Positions 2,908 through 48,976 of a DNA stretch of 64,000 bases are shown piece by piece (position 1 is the stretch's first letter; each line of letters starts with the position of its first letter). The notes beneath the pieces were generated by a model, which did not search any database, was not told where the DNA came from, and saw only the letters and a list, made by a program, of their open reading frames with translations. Position numbers and translations under genes: made by a program. The DNA lies in IMG/VR virus record IMGVR_UViG_3300031992_000090, positions 1,401-65,400 of that record; one strand, 5' to 3'. The DNA comes from a virus. Lineage: Duplodnaviria; Caudoviricetes.

Positions 2908-4185
2908 ATGGCAAAGTATGATCCGAAACTAACACAGCTTGTAGATCAGGCACTGGATACTCCTCAAGCAAAAGCTTTCCTCGATATGATACAGGCATCT
3001 GAGGGAGGTGCGTTCGACCGTACTTTCGGCAATGAGCAGTTTACTGACTTCTCCAAGCACCCGAATAAATCTGTAGCCTTTACCGATAAGAACGGCAGAC
3101 AGTCCTACTCCACAGCGGCAGGTGCATATCAGATTTTAAAGCCTACATGGGACGACATTTCAGGCAGAATAAATGCTAAAGATTTCTCAGAGCGCAATCA
3201 GCGCAGAGCCGCTTTAGCTTTAGCTTTCCAGAAACCTGGCATGTATCAGGCGATTATGCAGGGCGATCTGAATAAGATTGTAGACGGTGCCAACAGCATC
3301 TGGACGTCTCTCCCTAATTCCGCAGAAGGACTGAAACGCCACGCTGTCCGTTCAGGTGACTATATTACCCGTGCTTATAATTCTGCCCGTCAGAGTTATG
3401 GTCTGCCTACTGTGGCAGGCTATCAGGGCAGTACTGCAACCGGTGCTGCAATCTCTCCTATGAGCAGCAACCAGAATTTCTTTGCCAATATGGCAATGAA
3501 CTCAATCGGTGGTACAGGCTCTTTCTACGACCGAGCAATGGATACGATCCGCAATAAGACATGGTCAGATCCGGGCAGTATCCCATTTGAGATGATGAAC
3601 AGTAACGTAGGCAACCGTACTGTGTTCGGCGCACCTGACCTTACCAATCCTCAGAATGTAGACCGTCTGTTAAACCGTCTTGAAGATACAGATCCTACCC
3701 ATCAGTATGGGCTGTCTTTCACTGACAACGGTCTGCGTCCTACTGTTTCAGTACAGGATACACAGGGTCGCAGAGTAGATATGATAGAGAACCAGCAGGG
3801 GAATATTGCCCGTGCCTTTGTAGACGGTAAGCCTGTAGATCCGTCCGCTATCTCTATTGCACCGTCCTCAGCTCCTATCACACCTGTACAGGCTACGCTT
3901 GCTCCTCAGGCGCAACAGACTGTCATGCCTACTCCTGATATGCTGCAGCCAGACGAGGCTATTGTCCCAGTCCAGCCGCGCAATCTAGCTGTATCAGGGG
4001 GAACATCTGCAGCAGGGGATATCCCTCTCCCTGTGAACGCTGCTGCTGTTGTTCCCCCTGATACTCCTATTACACCTGTGTCGCTGTCACAGCAGTTAGC
4101 CGCAGCCATAGGCGGCGATCCTCTCACTCGTGCTCTTAATGAGAACAGAGATCCTAATGATTTAGCACGTCAGTTATTCGCCTAA
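2908..4185 (+). CDS. Virion-associated lytic transglycosylase (lambda R-like muramidase domain plus Pro-rich tail)
   Basis: AFLDMIQASEG ... STAAGAYQILKPTW motifs are characteristic of lambda-type lysozymes; lies in the ejection cluster. Confidence 0.75.
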   Translation: MAKYDPKLTQLVDQALDTPQAKAFLDMIQASEGGAFDRTFGNEQFTDFSKHPNKSVAFTDKNGRQSYSTAAGAYQILKPTWDDISGRINAKDFSERNQRRAALALAFQKPGMYQAIMQGDLNKIVDGANSIWTSLPNSAEGLKRHAVRSGDYITRAYNSARQSYGLPTVAGYQGSTATGAAISPMSSNQNFFANMAMNSIGGTGSFYDRAMDTIRNKTWSDPGSIPFEMMNSNVGNRTVFGAPDLTNPQNVDRLLNRLEDTDPTHQYGLSFTDNGLRPTVSVQDTQGRRVDMIENQQGNIARAFVDGKPVDPSAISIAPSSAPITPVQATLAPQAQQTVMPTPDMLQPDEAIVPVQPRNLAVSGGTSAAGDIPLPVNAAAVVPPDTPITPVSLSQQLAAAIGGDPLTRALNENRDPNDLARQLFA

Positions 4186-4235: not shown

Positions 4236-7200
4236 ATGCCATCGTCTAATTATGATGTCCCAAAGCCGGTCGGCTCTTTACCTAAACCAATAGACTACAG
4301 TTCCTCCAGCGGCGGTCGTTCATCTGCCGCTGCCGTCAACGATCCAATGCGACTTGCGCAGGAGATGGCACGTAATCAGAGACGTGCGCAGGCGCAGGCT
4401 AACAGGAAACCTACCAAGAAAGAGCAGGAAGAAGCTTTAAAGAACGCCAAAGAACAGCTGCTGACAAGTGCTGAACTGGAAGCACAGCAGTTAATTGACA
4501 ACGATCCAACTTACAGGAACGGAACCTATCAGCGTAAGAACGAGCTGTTAGACCATTACGAGAAGAATATCCTCCCGCAGATTTTGGCAGCTAATCCTTT
4601 ATTACGTGATGACGCTGTTCTGCGTGCCAATGTCCAGAGCAGAATTAAATATGTCTTTGACAATGCCCGTAAGGATAACGAGACTGCGTCCAATTTCAGT
4701 ATGGCTCAGGAGGCGTGGGCTTTAGGACAGTCACTTGGTCGTGGTGGTGACATTGCTTATGACAGCGCATCTACACTTGCGCAGGCTTTAAGAAACGCAT
4801 CACGTACGGCGGCTGATGATGAGCGTGCTCGTGTTATAAAACAGATTGAGGATAATTACAATACTCAGCTTGATGAACTGAATACCAGACAGCAGATGTT
4901 CAATGGTGATCCGGATACACAGAACGCTATTGAACAGCAGAAACAGCAGTTAATCAGAAACCGTAACGACAGTATGCGTCGTCTGGAGGAGAACACAGCC
5001 AGACTGCGTGCTGACGATGCCAAGCAGATTGCACTTGAGACTCAGGAACTTCTGAAAGAATATGCGAAAACTGCAGAGAATGAGCAGGCTCGTCGTGCAA
5101 GTAACGAGGCCTATAGAGAAACACAGTTAAGACAGGACGAGATTCAAGATAAGTCCTGGGGTCTTTCCAGGAACAATCGTAAAGTAGCAACCATAGCCTC
5201 ATGGCTTTTGGAACAGGTACCTCAGTTAGCTGTTACGATTGGTCTGACAGCAGCAGGTTCAGCAGTAGGTGGCGGTGCGGGAGCTGCTACCATGCTGGGT
5301 CTTACCAGTGCTGTTCAGGGTATGGGTGATGCTGGTATGCAGATATTCAGCGATATCATCAATACTCCAACTGAACAGCTTAAAAACTCTGAGGACTATC
5401 AGGAGATTTACCGCAATCTAGAGGGAAAGTATAAAGATCCTGTAGAGCGTGAACAGCTGGCAAAAGCCTATCTTGCCTACAATGCTATGAGCGAGGCTTT
5501 ACCTACAGCCGGTGCTGTATCAGGTGCGCTGTCATTCTTAGGACCAGAAGCTTTAGTTACAAAAACAGGTGTGTTCAATCGTCTGTTAGACAGTAAATTG
5601 CTGAACGCTACCAATTACAAAGGTTTCAATCTTCCTGGTATAGATAGACTCGTCCAGGTATCTCCTACTGCTGCCGTACGTACTAATGCTGCCGCTAACG
5701 CTATAGCGCAGCGCGCTCCACGAGCTGGTGCTATGGCGATACTTGGCGGTGCCGGTGAAGTTCCTGAGGAAGTAGCGCAGCAGGTTCTAGGCAATGTAAC
5801 CTACAGTGATGCTACCGGTATTCAGCGTGATCCATTTGAGGGTGCAGGACAGGCAGCCCTGCAGGCCTTTGCTACAGGCGGTCTTGTCGGTGGTATCGGT
5901 GGATTGTTAACCAGTCCTAGTGTAGCTCCGGAAACCGCAGGCACCACAGGAGCAGGACAGACTGGTGCTCAGACACAGCCAGCTCTGCCACAGCAGGCAC
6001 AAGCTGATACAACATTTACAGGAGAGTATCAGCCAGGTTATCGCTCGACAGATCTTGGTACACCACCTAGACAGGGACAGACTATAAATGTTCCACCTGA
6101 TATGCAGCAGCCGTTACTTTCTGACCAGCCTAGACTTACGGCACCACAGAATACAGCTGTACAGAATACAAACGTACAGACCGGCACAAATGCGCTGACT
6201 ATGCAGGGCAGACTCCCCGCTCCTCCGCAGCAGCTGCCTAATATGCCAGCTCCATTGAACGCCGCTGAACAGGCACAGGCTAACCAGATTCAGACCATGC
6301 TCACTGAGCCTGTCATTACACCTCCGCTTACTGATGCGCAGTCTCAGGCTATTCAGGCTGTACGCAATATGCTGACTGAGTCTGCTCCTACATCAGTAGA
6401 AGGCAGCATCGCTAACATGATGGCGTCAGGACAGCTTAACCCTGCGGCCATAAACACAGCCAGCGGACCTACTGAACAAGCCGTCGCTAACATGATGGCT
6501 CGTGCTCCTACGCCTGTAGAGGGCAGCATCGTTAATATGCTGGCATCGGAACAGCCTAACCCTGCTGCAGTTGCGAACACAAACAACGGACTGACCGAAC
6601 AGGACATCGCTAACATGATGGCTCCTGCTCCTACTGTAGAGGGCAGTATCCGTAATATGATGGGTACAAATCAGGTAAACCCTGCTGCAGCTGTCCTAGA
6701 TCCTAACAGCGGTCTGACTGCACAAGACATCGCCAACATGATGGCTCCTGCTCAGACGAGTACCGTAGCCAATACCTTACAGGAGACACCAAATGCTAAC
6801 CTCAGAACAAATCAGGGAATTGATCTTACAAATAGCCAGGCAACAGCCAATAGACCAGGAAACAGCCCTGCAATTGGATCCGAAAACTTTACGCCTGCTG
6901 CTGGAAGTAGTGCAGCAGCTCAGAGCGCAGGGACTGGCAGGACCTCACGTCAGGACGCCAGAACGCCTGCTGTGGATGTATCATCTAATCAAACAGAGAC
7001 TGGCGGGACAGGAAGCAGAGCCGGACGCCGACCAGATAATCCAGTCGCTGATACCACAGGCACGTCAGCAGATCTTGGGCAACGAGGCGGTGTTAGCCCG
7101 TCAGTCCAACGCACAGGCGATGGTGAACGCACAGAAGCAGATGGCAGCACTCAACCGGCCAGGTCTAATGTAACCAGTGACAGAACCGACCTGGGTGAGT

Positions 7201-10200
7201 CCGTTATGGACTTCTCCCCGGTTGATACATCGGAGGTTGACAACTTAGTTGCCGTTGCTGACACGTTAAAGCTTAACGCTGTGAACGTGGTATCTCCTGC
7301 CTACAGTCAGAGACTGCAGGATTTACAGAGGAATTTTACCGAGCAGGTAAACAGCGTGATTAAACAGTCAGGACAGAAACTAAGTCCTGACGATATAGCA
7401 GAGGCGGCCAATGCCTATGCGCAGTTAGTTATCCGTCTTGAGAACACGCTTGCTTACGTGACACAGGCCTCAATTGAGAACGGTGTTTTAAGTGACGTCC
7501 AGATACAGTTCAGTAATGACCTTGTTAACCGTGCCTATGGCAGATTCAATCCTGTTACCAAAGATTTACAGGTTTATTTCTACGAGAAAGACAAGCGCAA
7601 ACTTGCAGAGGTTATCAGTTCTACGACCTTTGCCCATGAGTACATGCACAACACAGTTGACTATGTACTAACTCATGTGAACTCTATACGCAGGCTGGCT
7701 GACAGCGGTAATGAGGCGGCCAGACAGTTCCTGCAGGATTTCAGCGACTTTGCGCACTACTGCGGTATTCCTGAGAATGTGGATCCATTCTGCGAGGCTA
7801 ACTGGTACAAGCAGGACAATGACAAGTTCCCGCATGAGAATGCCGCAATGCTGTTCGCTGATTACATAGTCGGCAACAAGCCGCTGCCTAGAGACACAGG
7901 ACTGAACCATCTCTACAGAGGTGCTACGAATTTTGCACGGCGTCTGCGTGACGGCTACCGTATGGTTATTAACTATATCAAACAGGTTATTGATTCGCTC
8001 AAAGCAATGTTTGAGTCCGGTAATGACCAGTTTGATTCTACCCATCAGAGCTTCGTAGCTAAGACCAAAGTAGATATAGCAGCCCATAATTTTCCGAACC
8101 AGGATCAGGTCTTTAACTTCTTTGACAAGCTCCTGAGTGATTTCTATGCTGACCTTGCGCATGAGCCTGTAGGTCCTGCGATTGAGCCTGACGACAATAT
8201 CGCAACTTTCGTAGGCGCACAGATAGACAGTTACAATATGGCAGGACAGTATGCAAGTGACGGCATGGACTTGCCTAATTCTATGCGCATGGCTGATGCT
8301 TATGTGGCTGAGTGTGTACGTGTGGCAAGTCTTACTGATGCAGAAAAGACATATGAAGCTGTACAGCGTCAGCAGGATCTAATAGCCAGCGCCATTGCTG
8401 AGGATCCAGGTCTATTGGTAAATTCAGCCGATGGTCAGACTGACCTTGAATCAGTTACGGTGGCCATGACCTCTGACACAGCTCCATATGACGCAGTCCA
8501 CGGGATTGTAGATCCTGTGATCCACGGTCTGTCCACTGTGAACGATCCGTCTATTGATGTAATGTCGCTTCCTGATAACAGCTACGAGATAGAGCCTATC
8601 TTCTCAGAAGAACAGGAACAGCAGATAAAATCAGAACTGACTGTGGCTATCAATGACGAGCTTGCCAATGGTCTGACAGGAGATTCAACTCCTGTTACCG
8701 AGCGTGAGTGGTTCAGTGCGTTTATCAACAACGGCGGTATCGTTGATGAGAACGGTTACCCACAGCCGCTCTACAGAGTAAACCACCAGCTTTCTACAAC
8801 ACCTAGCGGGAAAGAGCTTGAGACTGTAACCTACGGGCGTATGGAGAATCCTGTACGTGCAGGCGATAAGCTTGAGAATGTGGCGGCTTCGGAACGTGCA
8901 GCCGTACGAGACTTGATAAACCGTGTACAGACTGCGGTAAAGCAGAACAGACTTGATACCTTCGAGCCTACTGATAAAGACTTAGAGGCTCTGTTCAATG
9001 CGCAGATTGACGCCATCATTGCCCGTAATGCGGCAGGAGACGAGGTTTACTATATCCCAAGTCTGTTAAATGCCGCTGACTACGCCGAGATGGATCTCTA
9101 TGACTTTGGTCCTAATGTGGTCCGTCTGTCTGCCAGCCGTTACAATGCAATACTGCGCAGCCGTCCGCAGGCTAATCAGGCTGAACCTCAGACTGAGAGC
9201 GAACTGCAGGAGCAGCTGTCCCAGATTCTGCATCAGTTCCATCTTAAACAGGAGAGCCAGTTAAAAGACGGGCGTTATGCGCAGGCGGTACGAGTAGCTA
9301 ATGGCAGTAAGACTTTAGCTCAGGCTGAGGCTTACCGTACTGCAACTGTAGGACCGTACAGAGCCAACGGCTGGATGCGAGGCGCAACCCGTGTGCGTTA
9401 TGAGATAGTTGACGAGAACGCCTATTTCAGATTGTGGGTAATAGAATATTTTGCTACTACAGAAGGAGCGCTTGACAGCCATCCGCTTTACAGGACATAC
9501 GTCATTACACCGTCTCAGATCCGCGGCGCCAAGCAGGAACTGTACATGCGCTTTCAGCAGCCTATGAACCGCTGGATGCGTGAGAGAGCCAAAGAGTTCG
9601 GTATCAATGCTGATGTGTTTGCACATGACATAGGACAATTCTACACAGATCTGCATACCATTGAAGCCAATGTGCAGATGGAGAAAGAACTCAACGAAGC
9701 ACTGGCTAAAGCTCAGCTGGTTGAAGACCAGACTGAAAGAGCACAGGCGGTTAAGAACGCTCAGGATACTCTCAATAAATTCTACGAGCGCCAGAAAGAT
9801 AATACAAAGCGTTTTGGTATCCCAGGCGGCAAGTCAGTCGCTCAGTGCCGTACAGAGATGCAGGAGCTTGCCGCCAAGTATGGTGATGAGATTCTGCAGG
9901 ACGGCGTGGCTATGTTCCAGAAAACCATCAAAGATCTGGTAACTCTGCTGATTGAACGCGGCGTACTGTCTGAGGAATACGTAGCCTCGTTCGGTGACTG
10001 GTCGTTCTACTGTCCGTTAATCACCAAGGCAGGCTACAATGAGTCAGCTCCTAATGACGCTGCGGTTATGTTCCCGTCTAAACTTGACTATGCTCGAGAG
10101 GGATCTGAGCACCCTGCCGTTGACGCCTATACAGCCTTATCTTTCATCATCCATAAGAGCGGTAATGCTTTAGGATCTACAGCACTTGGACGTGAGGTTG

Positions 10201-43041: not shown

Positions 43042-43836
43042 ATGGCTGATATTGCATATGCAAATGTCGTGTTTAAAGACGCTGCCGGTAATACAGGTCA
43101 CATCAAGACTTTAACCGCAGCAGACATTACCCGTGTCCAGAACACTATCCAGGGTCTGAAAGACTTAAAGGACAGAGTAGATGTTATCATTGACAATAAC
43201 GGTGCTTTCCTTGCCGCTACTGAGGCAACTGATGCTGTCCTGGGTACTGTAAAGAAAGCTTCCGCTGCTGACGTTACCGCAGGTACCGCAGGCAAGGTTG
43301 TTGATGCTGCTCAGTTAAAAGCTGTAGCTGACAAGCTCACTAACGGTGTTCACTACAAGGGCACTGTAGCAACCTTTGACGCTCTGCCTACTACTGACGT
43401 AGAGGCTGGTGACATGTACAACGTTACTGCTGCCTTTACCAAGGACGGCATTAACTATCCGGCAGGCACCAACGTCATTGCTGACACCTCAGGCGCATCT
43501 GTTGAGTGGGACGTCCTGGACGGTGATCCATCAGGCTTTGCCAAGCAGGCTGTAGCTAACACCTTCACTGCTGCCAACACCTTCAATAACGACGTTACCG
43601 TAGCGGCTGCTTCCGGTGGTTCTGCTCCTAATGTGGATCTCACTGGTGCCAACGTTACCGTTGCAACTCAGAGCGCAGGTGACAATTCTACCAAGGCAGC
43701 TTCTACTGCTTACGTAGACGCAGCTGTGGCAGAGGTTGTTAAATACAGCGCATCCGCTCCTGCTGATGTGTCTGCCTTAGACAACAACACAGCTACATTC
43801 TATCCTGCTCAGGATCTGCTTTCAGATCCAGTTTAA
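43042..43836 (+). CDS. Tail fibre protein 2 (start 43042)
   Basis: AAGGAG RBS; ATEATDAVLGTVKKA T4-like fibre repeat; HYKGTVATFDALP domain. Confidence 0.75.
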   Translation: MADIAYANVVFKDAAGNTGHIKTLTAADITRVQNTIQGLKDLKDRVDVIIDNNGAFLAATEATDAVLGTVKKASAADVTAGTAGKVVDAAQLKAVADKLTNGVHYKGTVATFDALPTTDVEAGDMYNVTAAFTKDGINYPAGTNVIADTSGASVEWDVLDGDPSGFAKQAVANTFTAANTFNNDVTVAAASGGSAPNVDLTGANVTVATQSAGDNSTKAASTAYVDAAVAEVVKYSASAPADVSALDNNTATFYPAQDLLSDPV

Positions 43837-43844
43837 CAGCACGC

Positions 43845-43867
43845 GCCTCCCTACGGGGAGGCTTTTT
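43845..43867 (+). terminator. Rho-independent terminator
   Basis: GCCTCCC-TACG-GGGAGGC-TTTTT (cUACGg tetraloop). Confidence 0.85.
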
Positions 43868-43883
43868 CTAAAAGGTAAAAATT

Positions 43884-44381
43884 ATGGCAACAATAGATTA
43901 TGCTTCTCTGCTTTTGAAAGATAAAGACGGCAACGTAGGCAGAGTCAGGACTTTAAGCCAGACAGACATTGCAAAACTCAACAATGCGGTAGCTGTTACC
44001 ACCAAGAGCGGTCTGCCGGTCTACAGTTCCACTATTGACTATGAGGTAGGCTTTGTAGTGCGTTCGGGCACTTACATCTACCAGGCTCTGGTTGCAAACG
44101 GTCCTAATGAGCCAGCTGGCGTACAGCCTGTAACCAACCGCACTTACTGGGCGCAGATAGGCTCAGTTGCAGATGCTACCACCACAACCAAAGGTGTGGT
44201 ACAGCTGGCTGACAGTGCCGCAATTACCGCAGGCACCGCAGGACGTGTGATTGACGCAGCCCAGCTCAAGGCTGTAGCGGATACGATAGAGAACATAACC
44301 GTATCCAGTGTCGCAGTCGATCCGTCTGCTCTCAATGCCCGCGAGGGTGTGATAATGCCTGCCACTGACTTACTGGATTAG
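43884..44381 (+). CDS. Tail fibre protein 3 with CBM5/12-like module
   Basis: YSSTIDYEVGFVVRSGTYIYQAL...P.TNRTYW; ATTTTKGVVQLA repeat. Confidence 0.7.
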   Translation: MATIDYASLLLKDKDGNVGRVRTLSQTDIAKLNNAVAVTTKSGLPVYSSTIDYEVGFVVRSGTYIYQALVANGPNEPAGVQPVTNRTYWAQIGSVADATTTTKGVVQLADSAAITAGTAGRVIDAAQLKAVADTIENITVSSVAVDPSALNAREGVIMPATDLLD

Positions 44382-44392
44382 GAGGATGCAAA

Positions 44393-45166
44393 ATGGCTGA
44401 CGTAACACATGGCAAGTTTGTCTTTAAGGACAGCAGCAACAACGCTGGTACAGTTCTCGGTTTATCTGCAAATGACATCAGCAAGATGAACGCCAAGGCT
44501 ACTCTGGACGTGGTAAGTTCCGCAAGTGCTTCAATAAGTAACAAGCATGGTGAGCTGTTCCCGGCCACTGACCGTCTGACTGCTCCTGACACTCACTATC
44601 CGGTTGTCATTCAGGCACACTTTGTCACCGGCGATATCAAGCAGACCATGAACCCGAATTTTGACGCCACCGAGTGGGTGCTTGGCAATGGCGCATTAGT
44701 CCCAAGAACAGGAGCTTACAAAGATCTGTGGGAGTTTGCCAACGACCTCGGCCTTGTCAGAGACGCCTCTGCCCAGGCAAGCTATGAGAGTAACCCTTCC
44801 ACCTTTGAGGGTCTGTCCTACGGTCCTGGTGACGGCTCCACCACTTTCCAGCTCCCCGATTTCAGAGGGCGTGTAATACAGGGCGCAGATGCGTCCCATG
44901 CACTTGGTCATTTCATTAAAGCTGGGTTACCTAACATAACTGGACAAACAGGAAGTTGGGTAAGGTACAGAAGCATAACTACAAGCGGCGCCATATACAA
45001 AAGTGCTGACCAAACACAACAAGGTCAGGGCTTGGCTGATCCAAGTTCAGGCTTTATCGTTTATAGTGGACTCGTGTTAGATGCATCTGGTTCAAATAGC
45101 ACCTACGGAAATAGCAATACCGTTCAACCTTTAGCCGTATCGAGCTACAACTTAATCAAACTGTAG
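44393..45166 (+). CDS. Collar-domain tail fibre A with invertible C-terminus (cassette A expressed)
   Basis: GNG..V.R..Y.DL...YGPGDGSTTFQLPDFRGRV collar motif; PNITG crossover at codon 180. Confidence 0.9.
   Translation: MADVTHGKFVFKDSSNNAGTVLGLSANDISKMNAKATLDVVSSASASISNKHGELFPATDRLTAPDTHYPVVIQAHFVTGDIKQTMNPNFDATEWVLGNGALVPRTGAYKDLWEFANDLGLVRDASAQASYESNPSTFEGLSYGPGDGSTTFQLPDFRGRVIQGADASHALGHFIKAGLPNITGQTGSWVRYRSITTSGAIYKSADQTQQGQGLADPSSGFIVYSGLVLDASGSNSTYGNSNTVQPLAVSSYNLIKL
44930..44944 (+). repeat. Shufflon 1 crossover site A (expression site)
   Basis: CCTAACATAACTGGA. Confidence 0.9.
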
Positions 45167-45378
45167 GTAGATACTGCTTCTTGCTGAACAGTTGAAACGC
45201 TGTCGCTGTAAATGGCATTACTGCTTGAGGCTTTAAATTCGAGATACACATAGTATCCCTCAAGCGACCCGTCCGGTAATGGAGCATTGCTAGTAAACGA
45301 GGTGGTAGCAAAACAGCCCGTGTGCCGATAACCGTTTGCGCGTGCTGCTACATCGGCTTGTGTTCCAGTTATGTTAGG
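45145..45378 (-). other. Silent C-terminal cassette B (77 aa)
   Basis: PNITGTQADV...VSTYSLIKL*, starting at the inverted site 45364-45378. Confidence 0.9.
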
Positions 45379-45391
45379 GAAAAATTTAAGC

Positions 45392-45616
45392 CCTAACATA
45401 ACTGGAGATATACACGATATGTATGGTGGTGACAGAACTGTTAGCGTCGCATTTAGCCGTTCGACTATACACGCTAGTACTATGAAAGCAGAAGCTGGAA
45501 ATAACATGGGTAGTACAACTGTTTATTTCGGGGCCTCGTATGCTAACTCGATTTATGGAGCTTCTACAACCGTACAATCACCAGCTATAAGTTCTTACAG
45601 TTTAATTAAACTGTAG
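45392..45616 (+). other. Silent C-terminal cassette C (74 aa)
   Basis: PNITGDIHDM...ISSYSLIKL*, site 45392-45406. Confidence 0.9.
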
Positions 45617-45819
45617 GTAGATACGGCTAAAGATTGTACAGTGTTGCTTGTGCCGTAAACTGCACTCGAACGAGACGCATTAAAGGTTATTCCCCAATAC
45701 CATTGTTCACTTCCAGCAACGTTAGGTGCAAGTCCTGTAAGACTTGTGTTAATAGCAAGAGCTCCACTCGCAGTCTTTAAAGGCGATGTTAATGTTGTAA
45801 AATCTCCAGTTATGTTAGG
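45595..45819 (-). other. Silent C-terminal cassette D (74 aa, not in ORF track)
   Basis: Hand translation PNITGDFTTLTSPLKTASGALAINTSLTGLAPNVAGSEQWYWGITFNASRSSAVYGTSNTVQSLAVSTYSLIKL*; site 45805-45819. Confidence 0.9.
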
Positions 45820-45892
45820 CCCCTTTCCCTACCCAATCTCTCTAAACATAAATCCAGCTATCCGTTCTCGCGCCCAAAGTGTGTTAATTTCC

Positions 45893-45987
45893 CTGTGCCT
45901 GGCACAATAGCAGAAAACGGCAGATACAGTCACAAATGGCTAAGTGGTGCGGTTTCCAACCTAAATCCTGAGCACAGCGGGCACATT
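45893..45987. promoter_or_regulatory. Arm-like GCACA site set, copy 1
   Basis: CTGTGCCTGGCACAATA plus direct GCACA pair at 45972 and 45981. Confidence 0.7.
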
Positions 45988-45997
45988 AAAAATCCTA

Positions 45998-46026
45998 TTG
46001 GCAATCTTGTAAACTGCACATATAAT
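45998..46026 (+). promoter_or_regulatory. Sigma70 promoter for fibre B
   Basis: TTGGCA-17 bp-TATAAT. Confidence 0.7.
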
Positions 46027-46063
46027 ATGAATATACGCATGTGTACGATTAATGGAGAATATT

Positions 46064-46669
46064 ATGGCCACAGTAAGTCCGTCCAATTTTAAATTTGTAA
46101 ATGCATCTGGTGATGACGGTGAGGTAAAGTCCCTGTCAGATGCTGACATTACTCTTATCAACAACTGTTTGCAGGACGTTGAGAATTTAAAATATACCGC
46201 TTTAAGCTCGCTGCCGTCTGGAAGTATGATCCATTTTGCAGGTAACGTTGTCCCTGCCGGGTTCCTCGTCTGCAACGGTGCAGCCGTAAGTCGTACTGAC
46301 TATGCAAATCTGTTCGCTGCCATTGGTACTCTCTATGGAGCCGGTGACGGTTCTACCACCTTTAATCTGCCTGATGCCCGTGACAGAGTCCTCCAGGGAG
46401 CTTCTTCAACATACGCAGTCGGAACCCGCATTGCGGCTGGGTTACCGAATATCACGGGAAAAGTCTATTGGAGTAATGCTGGGAATCCCGCGGCTAGCGG
46501 GGAAGGTGCACTATATTGGTCGATGAACGATGCTGCGGGTACTCGTGTCACTGATGAAGGTTATCCAGCAAACATTAGTATCGACGCCTCTCGATCAAGC
46601 TCATATTACGGCGTTACTACGAAACCTCAAATAGACGGTATATCGGTTTACACCTTAATCAAAATATAA
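46064..46669 (+). CDS. Collar-domain tail fibre B with invertible C-terminus (cassette E expressed)
   Basis: GGAG RBS; LPSGSMIHFAG..VPAGFLVCNGAAVSRTDYANLFAAIG...GDGSTTFNLPD collar motif; CCGAATAT at 46445-46452. Confidence 0.9.
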   Translation: MATVSPSNFKFVNASGDDGEVKSLSDADITLINNCLQDVENLKYTALSSLPSGSMIHFAGNVVPAGFLVCNGAAVSRTDYANLFAAIGTLYGAGDGSTTFNLPDARDRVLQGASSTYAVGTRIAAGLPNITGKVYWSNAGNPAASGEGALYWSMNDAAGTRVTDEGYPANISIDASRSSSYYGVTTKPQIDGISVYTLIKI

Positions 46670-46872
46670 GACGCTACAGCAGGCGCTTGTACTGTAGTTA
46701 CTGAATCACTATAAATCGCATTGCCAAGCGACAGGTTGAAGTATGGATCTATATTTTTTGATTGCGCTACGGTTTCGACATTTTCTCTTGAAGTGCCAGG
46801 ATTCAAAAAATAAGTCGCCCCTGCGGTGGCACTTGATCTGCCTATCATAGACCATCCACCCCGAATATTCGG
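46648..46872 (-). other. Silent C-terminal cassette F (74 aa)
   Basis: PNIRGGWSM...VASYILIKV*; inverted core CCGAATAT at 46865-46872. Confidence 0.85.
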
Positions 46873-46944
46873 CACCCTTTCTCCACCCATCCCACCCGTT
46901 AGATTTTCAATTCGTTATACCATGTTTATTCTCCTGTAAAATCG

Positions 46945-47039
46945 CTGTGCCAGGCACAATACGGCTTTTCATCCATCTGACAATAAACTCTAGCCTTATC
47001 AGTTATTTGTCCTGATATCTGCGGCACATTGAGCACAGC
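46945..47039. promoter_or_regulatory. Arm-like GCACA site set, copy 2
   Basis: CTGTGCCAGGCACAATA plus direct GCACA pair at 47024 and 47033, overlapping the integrase 3' end. Confidence 0.7.
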
Positions 47040-48132
47040 CTTTTGAGCAGAGGTAATCCCACCAGTTTTGCAGAACAATTCTGCGCTGTGCCGTAAGCTG
47101 GGAGTGCATGTAGGCCTGGACGGTTTCCGAGCCGGTGACATGGGCAAGCATACTCTCTGCCACTTCAAAAGCTACGCCCTGCTCTGCCATCCATGTGCGT
47201 CCTGTAGCTCTAAGCCCATGATGGGTGGTGACACCGCTCAGGTCACTGGCTTTAAGCCATTTGGTAAGCGCCTGCACATGGACATGCTTTCCGCGTCCTA
47301 TTCGCCATATATAGGGGCTTCTGCTGTGGTTCAGGTATTTGATTTCGTCCAATAGATTTATGACAGGCTGGATCAGCGGTACCGTATGGTCACGTCTTTT
47401 TTTCATAAATCTGGCAGGAATGGTCATCACATCATCGGTGATCCATGACCACTGCATCTGGCTGACCTCATTGGGGCGCAGCATTGACCAGACACAGAAC
47501 GTGACATAGATTTGCCAGGCTCTCTCCTCCTGTGAGCACAGACTGAACAGCAGATTGAGATTCTGCGGGTTTATATAGGGGTGGTGTCTGACGCATTTAG
47601 GCGGGAGTATGCGGGAGAGCTGGGCTGCCACGTTGGCATCTACCAGTCCTGCGGCTTTGGCAAGATTGAGCATCTCATTTATGCGCATCAGACAGCGTCT
47701 GCGGGTTGCAGGTCTGTCCTTGAGATTGTCAAGGGCCTCGAGTATTTGAGGTGCGTTTAAGCTGTCCAGTTCACATTTTCCCAGTTTGGTTATGATATAC
47801 TTCTCGATGCGTTTTTTCTCATTCGGATAGGAAGTCAAGCTCTTTTTCTTGTCTCTCCAGAGATAGAACGCATCCCATAGGCGTGCTCCTTCTGATGATT
47901 TCAGTCCAAGTCTTGCTCGTATTTTGTGCGCTTGAGCTCTGGCCTGGACGATGGTCATGGGAACACGGCCTAGGGTGATGTCTCGCACTTTGCCGTGTTT
48001 ACTGTAGCGGAGCACATAAGTTTTCACGCCAGAGGGGAATACACGGACAAACAGACTTTCCCCAAGTTTAAAGGTATAGCGTTTGGTTTGAACCGGCAGA
48101 CGGTTGATGGTTTGTTGAGTTATCTTATTCAT
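46999..48132 (-). CDS. int: Tyrosine recombinase (P4-type integrase with arm-binding domain), probable shufflon invertase
   Basis: AGGAGG before ATG 48132; N-terminal LFVRVFPSGVKTYVLRY arm domain; catalytic LRPNE, K, HGLR, LAH and AY. Confidence 0.9.
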   Translation of the reverse strand: MNKITQQTINRLPVQTKRYTFKLGESLFVRVFPSGVKTYVLRYSKHGKVRDITLGRVPMTIVQARAQAHKIRARLGLKSSEGARLWDAFYLWRDKKKSLTSYPNEKKRIEKYIITKLGKCELDSLNAPQILEALDNLKDRPATRRRCLMRINEMLNLAKAAGLVDANVAAQLSRILPPKCVRHHPYINPQNLNLLFSLCSQEERAWQIYVTFCVWSMLRPNEVSQMQWSWITDDVMTIPARFMKKRRDHTVPLIQPVINLLDEIKYLNHSRSPYIWRIGRGKHVHVQALTKWLKASDLSGVTTHHGLRATGRTWMAEQGVAFEVAESMLAHVTGSETVQAYMHSQLTAQRRIVLQNWWDYLCSKGCAQCAADIRTNN

Positions 48133-48305
48133 ATCGTTAACTTTCCTCCTATTAATTTGATAGTACATTTTTCGGAAAGTTGCATTAACTTGTAGATAAT
48201 TAAGCGTTTACACGCAAGACTTGTGACGGATTGTGTGAAATTCTTTTGTTTCTGACATATAATAAGACTAGTTATGTAACTTAACACTTGAGGAGTTAAT
48301 TCCAA

Positions 48306-48839
48306 ATGGCAACACAATTGCAGACAGCATATCGCTTCGATAAGTACAGTTACTATCGTGGCGAAGATAAGGTAATGATGGACGGTGAAGGCAAAATCCT
48401 GTTACCGCCTGATGACACTTTAGTCAAGCCAGATTTAAAAGACGGCTACTGGTCTAAGTTTGATAAAGCCGGTAACAAATGGGTAAAAGAGAAAATCCCT
48501 ACCACCTGTCAGGAAGTTATTGACGCTGGTCTTTCCGTAGTATCCAACTCATCTGAGCCGCACGATCGTGAACTTATAGATCTGTTTGCTCGTCTGGTTG
48601 AGGCTGAGAAAGATGTATACCAGCTGCACACAGAGCCGGATACTCTGGTTCAGACCATCGAGAAAATCCCTGAGCCTACCCCTGAGGAGAAAGAGCGTCA
48701 GGAGCAGGAGAAGCAGAAAGCTGAACTGGACAGACAGATAGCCGATATCCGTGAACGTTTAGCAGACGCTACTCTGTTAGGTGATGAGGAATGGATCGCA
48801 GAGTTACAGGCTGCTTATAAGGAACTGATAGGAGCATAA
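48306..48839 (+). CDS. Tail fibre assembly chaperone-like protein
   Basis: AYRFD...Y.GE......ILLPPD.TLVKP..K.GYW.KF....W; follows the fibre genes. Confidence 0.65.
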   Translation: MATQLQTAYRFDKYSYYRGEDKVMMDGEGKILLPPDDTLVKPDLKDGYWSKFDKAGNKWVKEKIPTTCQEVIDAGLSVVSNSSEPHDRELIDLFARLVEAEKDVYQLHTEPDTLVQTIEKIPEPTPEEKERQEQEKQKAELDRQIADIRERLADATLLGDEEWIAELQAAYKELIGA

Positions 48840-48841
48840 TT

Positions 48842-48976
48842 ATGGCTAAGAGTGCAGTAAAAGTTACACGTTGTAAATATTGCGGTGCTAAGCTGGCATC
48901 TGATGGGTTCTGTTCCAAGCCATGCAAGCCGGGCGAATTAGATCGCAAGCTTGCGGCTGACGCAAAGAAATCCTGA
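48842..48976 (+). CDS. Small Zn-ribbon protein (44 aa, not in ORF track)
   Basis: MAKSAVKVTRCKYCGAKLASDGFCSKPC...; GGAG upstream. Confidence 0.55.
   Translation: MAKSAVKVTRCKYCGAKLASDGFCSKPCKPGELDRKLAADAKKS

Follow-up and report, generated by a model that had tools for sequence, protein, structure and literature searches.

A putative two-cassette tip switch on the second tail fibre of a gut phage with two crossover cores

The closest described counterparts of the locus considered here are phage shufflons that employ tyrosine recombinases. The Rin shufflon of Bifidobacterium prophages has an armless XerD-like invertase and an 11-bp rix site, TTCCCTAACCC (Mavrich et al. 2018, PMC6109161), a BV01-like phage shufflon combines a tyrosine recombinase with a 10-bp motif (PMC13596623), and programmed inversions in tail-fibre genes have been catalogued (PMC9881135). 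As with Rin and BV01, a phage-encoded tyrosine recombinase adjoins a receptor-binding-protein gene in the phage dealt with below, silent C-terminal cassettes are parted by short sites, and inversion would swap the tip.

Three other kinds of system are pertinent. The R64/IncI plasmid shufflon reportedly has the Rci recombinase, 19-bp sfx sites and the PilV pilus adhesin as its target (Komano 1999). Gin of Mu, Cin of P1, Pin of e14 and Min of p15B are serine invertases with 26-bp sites, a 2-bp core and a Fis-dependent enhancer. Then there are the overlap variants engineered for tyrosine recombinases, lox511 and lox2272 as against loxP, and F3 and F5 as against FRT, the orthogonality of which has been measured.

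The window analysed makes up 64,000 bases of an IMG/VR virus record 65,400 bases long, whose CheckV completeness is 100%. We hold the following account of its second fibre locus with moderate confidence, taken as a whole, i.e. the two-cassette switch, the enzyme family, the separate core classes and a core difference that was not selected. Positions 46436-46872 would form an invertible switch of two cassettes for the tip of the second collar-type tail fibre, driven by an arm-domain (P4-integrase-like) tyrosine recombinase encoded at 46999-48168, some 125 bp past the last cassette. Strand exchange would take place inside an 8-bp Pro-Asn-Ile core, CCGAATAT, present at 46445-46452 (plus strand) and 46865-46872 (minus strand), and the consequent inversion of about 420 bp would swap tip E for tip F with fibre length unchanged. 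Because partners must match in the core, each array would evolve in concert and hold a single 8-mer, wobble bases included, and different arrays would be free to hold different 8-mers even with closely related enzymes. The core difference between fibres A and B would then most likely be inherited or the result of drift, the arrays having been homogenised separately, rather than of selection against cross-locus events.

Anatomy of the two fibre loci

The first locus opens with tail fibre A and its tip A (44393-45166, plus strand; collar domain by Pfam and PHROG), whose crossover site, CCTAACATAACTGGA, is at 44930-44944. The silent cassettes B, C and D of array 1 follow at 45167-45819, with sites at 45364-45378 (B, minus strand), 45392-45406 (C, plus strand) and 45805-45819 (D, minus strand). 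There are four perfect copies of CCTAACATAACTGGA in the array, and the core is CCTAACAT in all. Beyond them is a distal element (45820-45960) which is a paralogue of 46873-46998 and contains a palindrome, TGTGCCTGGCACA, at 45894-45906. Cassette D also has a degenerate internal site, CCTAACGTTGCTGGA (PNVAG; 45712-45726, minus strand), heading a 43-codon tail, and this may be the remnant of a cassette fusion.

Fibre B, with tip E attached, occupies 46052-46669 on the plus strand (Pfam Collar, 4e-23; PHROG tail collar/fibre families); the gene as called in the database begins at 46064 (201 aa), and P0001 is identical. Its crossover site (46445-46459, plus strand) consists of the core followed by CACGGGA and encodes PNITG. 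The expressed tip cassette E runs from 46453 to 46669. Silent tip cassette F lies inverted at 46648-46864 (minus strand), overlapping the end of E by 22 bp (46648-46669), and its crossover site (46858-46872, minus strand) has the same core and then TCGGGGT (PNIRG). Read on the minus strand from 46872, F is VPNIRGGW...SYILIKV followed by the terminal stop, 74 open codons in all, with the length of tip E and the C-terminal motif of every other tip. A spacer (46873-46998), with a palindrome, TGTGCCAGGCACA, at 46946-46958, leads to the gene for the arm-domain tyrosine recombinase, the proposed shufflon invertase, on the minus strand (46999-48168; 389 aa, or 377 aa from the likely start at M13). 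The distance from the recombinase stop to the first site, that of F, is 127 bp.

An earlier note on this DNA had drawn attention to the encoding of AGLPNITG in both fibres with four differing wobble positions, and a 24-mer search of the 64 kb bears it out: GCTGGGTTACCTAACATAACTGGA is at 44921-44944 in fibre A and GCTGGGTTACCGAATATCACGGGA at 46436-46459 in fibre B, there are no other matches (0 expected), and the two differ at exactly four third-codon positions, all silent. It was also correct in assigning inverted cassette F to the core of fibre B. Comparison of the head of F, CCGAATATTCGGGGT, with that of fibre B, CCGAATATCACGGGA, gives a common 8-mer, CCGAATAT, plus GG, and CCTAACAT is absent from the F site. 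The cores segregate perfectly by array, with CCTAACAT at 4/4 sites of array 1 and CCGAATAT at 2/2 of array 2, and they differ at core positions 3 and 6. Elsewhere in the window CCGAATAT has one other copy (18193) and CCTAACAT has two. The perfect repeat at locus 2 amounts to just 8 bp (plus GG) versus 15-18 bp at locus 1.

Several further features of the cassettes deserve mention. Within the F site there is a perfect 12-bp palindrome, CCGAATATTCGG (46861-46872), so that the 8-mer can be read there on either strand, the two copies being offset by 4 bp; should orientation be determined by the core alone, the F site could also act as a direct-repeat partner of the fibre-B site. The ends of convergent cassettes overlap over about 22 bp (at 46648-46669, 45145-45166 and 45595-45616 in the window, and at 3915-3936 in the sister phage L006), the overlap being near-palindromic, with the common ending ...Y-x-L-I-K-x-stop encoded on each strand. 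That F might be expressed by itself from an ATG at 46890 was considered and deemed unlikely, as that ATG is not kept at the paralogous position of array 1. P0121, a 286-aa collar fibre (4501-5361 of L020, an unrelated baseplate-bearing phage contig), has an expressed tip that is 71% identical to silent cassette F, which implies that tips are common to different phage types.

The recombinase and the arrays of its clade

By Pfam the enzyme has Arm-DNA-bind_3, Phage_int_M and Phage_integrase (PF00589, 5e-16) domains, i.e. the arm, central and catalytic parts of a P4-type arm-domain phage integrase. Its match to the PHROG 1 integrase is at 3e-50, with NCBIfam matches falling far below cut-off, and no catalytic residue (Arg, Lys, His-x-x-Arg, His and Tyr) varies among 13 aligned clade members. 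Searches of the complete 65.4-kb genome for the tyrosine and serine families found this to be the sole recombinase gene. A switch operated by a serine invertase was rejected, since PF00239 had no match in the complete genome, the control genomes having matched.

The locus had no Megablast match in the GenBank phage collection, and scans of viral, metagenome and genome collections with the single recombinase protein gave no usable relative; alignment-based scans of viral and metagenome contigs did return loci, 136 of them. From these a clade set (n=50) was taken, consisting of loci with distinct DNA, a clade homologue of 34% identity or more and a downstream flank of 1 kb or longer. An array of at least two P[N/D][I/V]xG tip cassettes is present beside 37 of the 50 clade loci, the other 13 having fewer than two sites by that pattern, and beside none of the 26 loci of more distant integrases (30% identity or less). 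Family arrays mostly start about 123-158 bp after the recombinase stop codon, and the largest have 11 sites. Judged by sequence, the window locus belongs to a large, widespread family of phage tail-fibre tip shufflons.

A palindrome of the pattern TTGTGC-N3-4-GCACA recurs in nearly every family array, at a distance of about 60-75 bp from the recombinase-proximal site. It is at 45894-45906 and 46946-46958 in the window and at 5823-5835 in L013, and in L035, L038, L039, L042, L049, L064, L029 and L091 it falls between the recombinase stop codon and the first site. It might act as an accessory or arm-type binding element. Both the window and L013 have it after each of two arrays, though array 1 is without an adjoining recombinase gene.

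L025, a JGI contig of 217,825 bp, has at its end sequence 100% identical to the L013 phage, and the L013-like part is followed by genes for a 304-aa protein and a NikA-like protein, both missing from the window; it may be a prophage, a chimera or a variant. For L026, the notion that its extra sequence is host DNA, and so marks a prophage state, was rejected when it proved to be a mosaic phage early region.

Core identity and the two-array relatives

In 37/37 arrays the 8-mer coding P-N/D-I/V is identical at every site, both wobble bases included. Core positions 0-7, with the Pro and Asn/Asp wobbles among them, are invariant within arrays and wobble positions 8, 11 and 14 vary, the Ile wobble (position 8) doing so in 97% of arrays with at least three sites; the 15 positions upstream are essentially unconserved. 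The family site consensus is CCNRAYRT, then a weakly conserved 3' part, and nine cores occur among the phages: CCTAACAT, CCTAATAT, CCAAATAT, CCAAATGT, CCAAACGT, CCTGACAT, CCGGACAT, CCGAACAT and CCGAATAT. Two of the four wobble differences between fibres A and B, at site positions 9 and 12, are outside the invariant core; these positions vary freely within arrays and so are irrelevant to exchange.

Where exchange occurs is evident from clade relatives that are available as alternative isoforms (L049/L052/L055 and L039/L040/L043). The recombinase flanks of L055, L052 and L049 are 95-97% identical and their cassettes 99-100% identical, with order and orientation changed. Neighbouring alignment pieces overlap by exactly the 8-mer (in L055, for example, 5649-7237 aligns directly and 7230-7460 inverted), the base 3' of the 8-mer always going with the cassette and the base 5' of it staying with the left flank, which places strand exchange inside the 8-mer in these phages. 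L035 and L042 are 88% identical in the recombinase region and 95% in the fibre stem at the DNA level, and the core is CCTAACAT in eleven copies in the former and CCAAATGT in eight in the latter, so that whole arrays change core in concert with the enzyme barely changed. Heterology in the overlap region blocks recombination by lambda Int, Cre, Flp and XerCD, and concerted change of the core of a whole array is a prediction of this overlap-identity rule of tyrosine recombinases.

Does locus 2 itself flip? The runs with window DNA (two, from sheep gut, probably the source of the phage) and those with relatives (two) provided assembled contigs only, and these gave no joints and no alternative forms. 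A single arrangement is common to the five contigs with fibre B. No fusion of fibre B to F was found among the longer proteins searched with the F tip, the sole match being P0121. L013, L014, L024, L025 and L026 were rejected as isoforms, being 100% identical copies, as were L029-L031, which are collinear. Locus 2 has the layout of a shufflon, with an adjoining tyrosine recombinase, short identical opposed sites and alternative in-frame 3' cassettes, and since an 8-mer match is all that active family arrays share, it is plausibly a working switch. We infer that it still flips, that the adjoining enzyme is responsible, and that the two core mismatches, if within the overlap region, block exchange across arrays.

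The two-array layout of the window is also that of L013, whose recombinase is 96% identical to the window's. In L013/L014 CCGAATAT is present at all 10 sites (four in array 1 and six in array 2). In L171, which represents a third two-array lineage, CCTAATAT is present in the last array-1 cassette and at three array-2 sites; the enzyme of L091, from the same sample, is 69% identical to that of the window. With two arrays and one core in both L013 and L171, orthogonality is not a family trait. L021 has both fibres, without cassettes and without a recombinase gene at the locus, fibre A having CCTAACATAACTGGT (core CCTAACAT, CCTAAC) and fibre B CCGAACATAACGGGC (core CCGAACAT, CCGAAC).

When 43690-48954 of the window is set against L013, identity is 87-93% in all framework parts, none of the cassettes are related, and the homology blocks all stop at crossover sites. 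One such block ends at 46458, in the fibre B site; tip E, the flanks of which are 91% identical, is not homologous to the L013 tip; and the recombinase-proximal site of locus 2 and the spacer are kept (92.7% identity from 46860 onward). This suggests wholesale replacement of cassettes at the sites, possibly via recombinase-mediated exchange between co-infecting phages. Import of the window's fibre A from an L021-like lineage was considered and rejected, its stem being equally distant (86.5%) from L013 and L021.

Sister phages of the same gene order without a recombinase gene at the locus (L006, L015-L019 and L021) provide a further comparison. One inverted fibre-B tip is kept in three of them (L006 3690-4200, L015 4860-5400 and L019 4860-5330), with a long 24-35-bp inverted repeat covering GSYIAAGLPN. 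The core has decayed in 2/3 (CCGGATAT vs CCGAATGT in L015, and CCGAATAT vs CCGAACAT in L019). L006 and L015 differ by inversion of exactly the repeat-flanked fibre-B tip segment, so that some flipping may not need an enzyme such as the window's.

With within-array wobble identity the rule in 37/37 arrays, two cores most likely signify two recombination classes, and as the cores differ at positions 3 and 6 and segregate by array, we would expect little or no exchange between the arrays. Array 1 (CCTAACAT x4) and array 2 (CCGAATAT x2) are probably two non-interacting classes served by one enzyme. The proposal in the earlier note of one enzyme running two orthogonal switches survives to this extent, given the sole tyrosine recombinase, the core exchange in relatives and the wobble identity. 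The fuller proposition, that with one enzyme and two site classes a mere two silent differences render the fibre tip repertoires independent (4 x 2 combinations), is one we would advance only tentatively, at somewhat short of an even chance. Were the two-class reading true, L013 and L171 would exemplify the pooled state, with both fibres drawing on all cassettes, and the window would harbour a natural equivalent of heterospecific lox/FRT sites.

Might the enzyme instead be an ordinary lysogeny integrase, the tips being inverted by a host or co-infecting enzyme or by homologous recombination? Its full P4-type domain architecture with an arm-binding domain would suit this, as would retention of the inverted cassette by recombinase-less sisters that differ by inversion (L006 and L015), including G001, the complete genome of L006 with terminal repeats, where a search found no tyrosine or serine recombinase, and the presence near the end of a 217-kb contig of a 100% copy of the L013 recombinase. 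However, the clade is tied to arrays at a fixed distance and arrays are not found beside distant integrases, and L008/G002, L028 and L029 each have a further integrase-type gene distinct from the first (in G002, which is of another phage type, the gene adjoining the six-site array is 46% identical to the window enzyme, and the second integrase, 2.6 kb away, 28%). The phage encodes its own DNA polymerase A, DUF927 primase-helicase and SNF2 helicase, which together with sister phages of the same build that have no recombinase gene favours a dedicated invertase. No tRNA gene, which often serves such integrases as attB, was found in the window and no host junction in the contigs examined, and it is the recombinase-less phages that have the long repeats and decaying cores, those with recombinase having the 8-mer only. 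A lysogeny integrase is to our minds highly improbable, a dedicated invertase being the better fit. That locus 2 is a frozen relic, with F no longer flipping and the 8-mer surviving only as P-N-I coding, would accord with a repeat of only 8 bp plus GG, with the unusual fourth codon of F (CGG, Arg) and with the lack of an isoform in the public contigs examined. Yet F has stayed open for 74 codons on a silent strand and has the family's conserved end, both core wobbles match despite free synonymous choice, as they do in shuffling arrays that share only the 8-mer, the core decays in recombinase-less L015 and L019, and the recombinase-proximal site and its 127-bp spacing are kept in L013. We regard a relic as quite unlikely.

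On the origin of the distinct core the earlier note had gone further: selection would have favoured synonymous recoding of the core in one array, allowing one enzyme to run two switches without harmful cross-locus deletion or inversion. The perfect segregation of cores by array, the universality of within-array wobble identity in the family and the silence of all four differences speak in its favour. Against it, L013, with its 96%-identical enzyme, and the L171 lineage hold one core in both arrays, L021 has an A/B codon difference with neither cassettes nor a recombinase gene at the locus, and two of the four wobble differences are the ones irrelevant to exchange. Tandem arrays of four or five direct sites 225 bp apart are kept in relatives and do not collapse, so that deletion seems to be avoided by the enzyme or the system itself, which weakens the need for insulation. 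By geometry, too, cross-array inversion would still give two complete fibre genes, and the selective need is then weak. Recoding for the purpose of insulation is a claim that the relatives do not uphold, and we think it unlikely. It is simpler to view the arrays as separate units, each evolving in concert, that drifted apart in the window; the arrays of L013 and L171 would be still, or again, one class.

Comparison with described switches

Phage host range is set by fibre tips, and a coding 8-mer whose silent positions are fixed within an array and drift between arrays is a clear signature of overlap identity. The genome is a natural test of whether two silent changes can split the sites of one recombinase into orthogonal classes, with potential use in predicting the number of fibre combinations open to a phage population and in supplying compact sets of orthogonal sites and enzymes. 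There is no new principle here, and adaptive insulation is not supported by the relatives; the dual core is a useful natural experiment.

Tip shufflons with tyrosine recombinases have been on record since 2018, but always with a small armless invertase. The literature yielded no published description of the arm-domain clade or of a two-core genome, and the loci aligned point to a large clade, not described before, of full-length integrase-like enzymes that appear dedicated to the shuffling of tips in gut phages. Unlike the Rin invertase, which has no arm-binding domain, the window enzyme has Arm-DNA-bind_3, Int_M and catalytic domains. The site sequences are unrelated, that of the window being a P-N-I coding 8-mer and rix being of a non-coding type, and the fibres concerned are of the collar-domain type, from Gram-negative gut phages. 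No genome with two arrays and two cores has been described for Rin.

With R64 the resemblance extends to multiple inversion by a tyrosine recombinase, a short conserved core with one poorly conserved arm, C-terminal adhesin tips, and inversions only despite direct repeats. Rci is nevertheless armless, the sfx sequence differs, and R64 has one array with one site family (Rci being set apart here by description). Gin, Cin, Pin and Min likewise invert DNA to give a tail fibre another C-terminus, Min with multiple segments, but their enzyme class is different, and no serine recombinase was found in the window genome. With heterospecific lox and FRT sites the likeness is that of one tyrosine recombinase having two site classes which differ only in the overlap region; unlike those engineered variants, the window has an orthogonality inferred from sequence, and the difference on which it would depend is in the wobble positions of codons.
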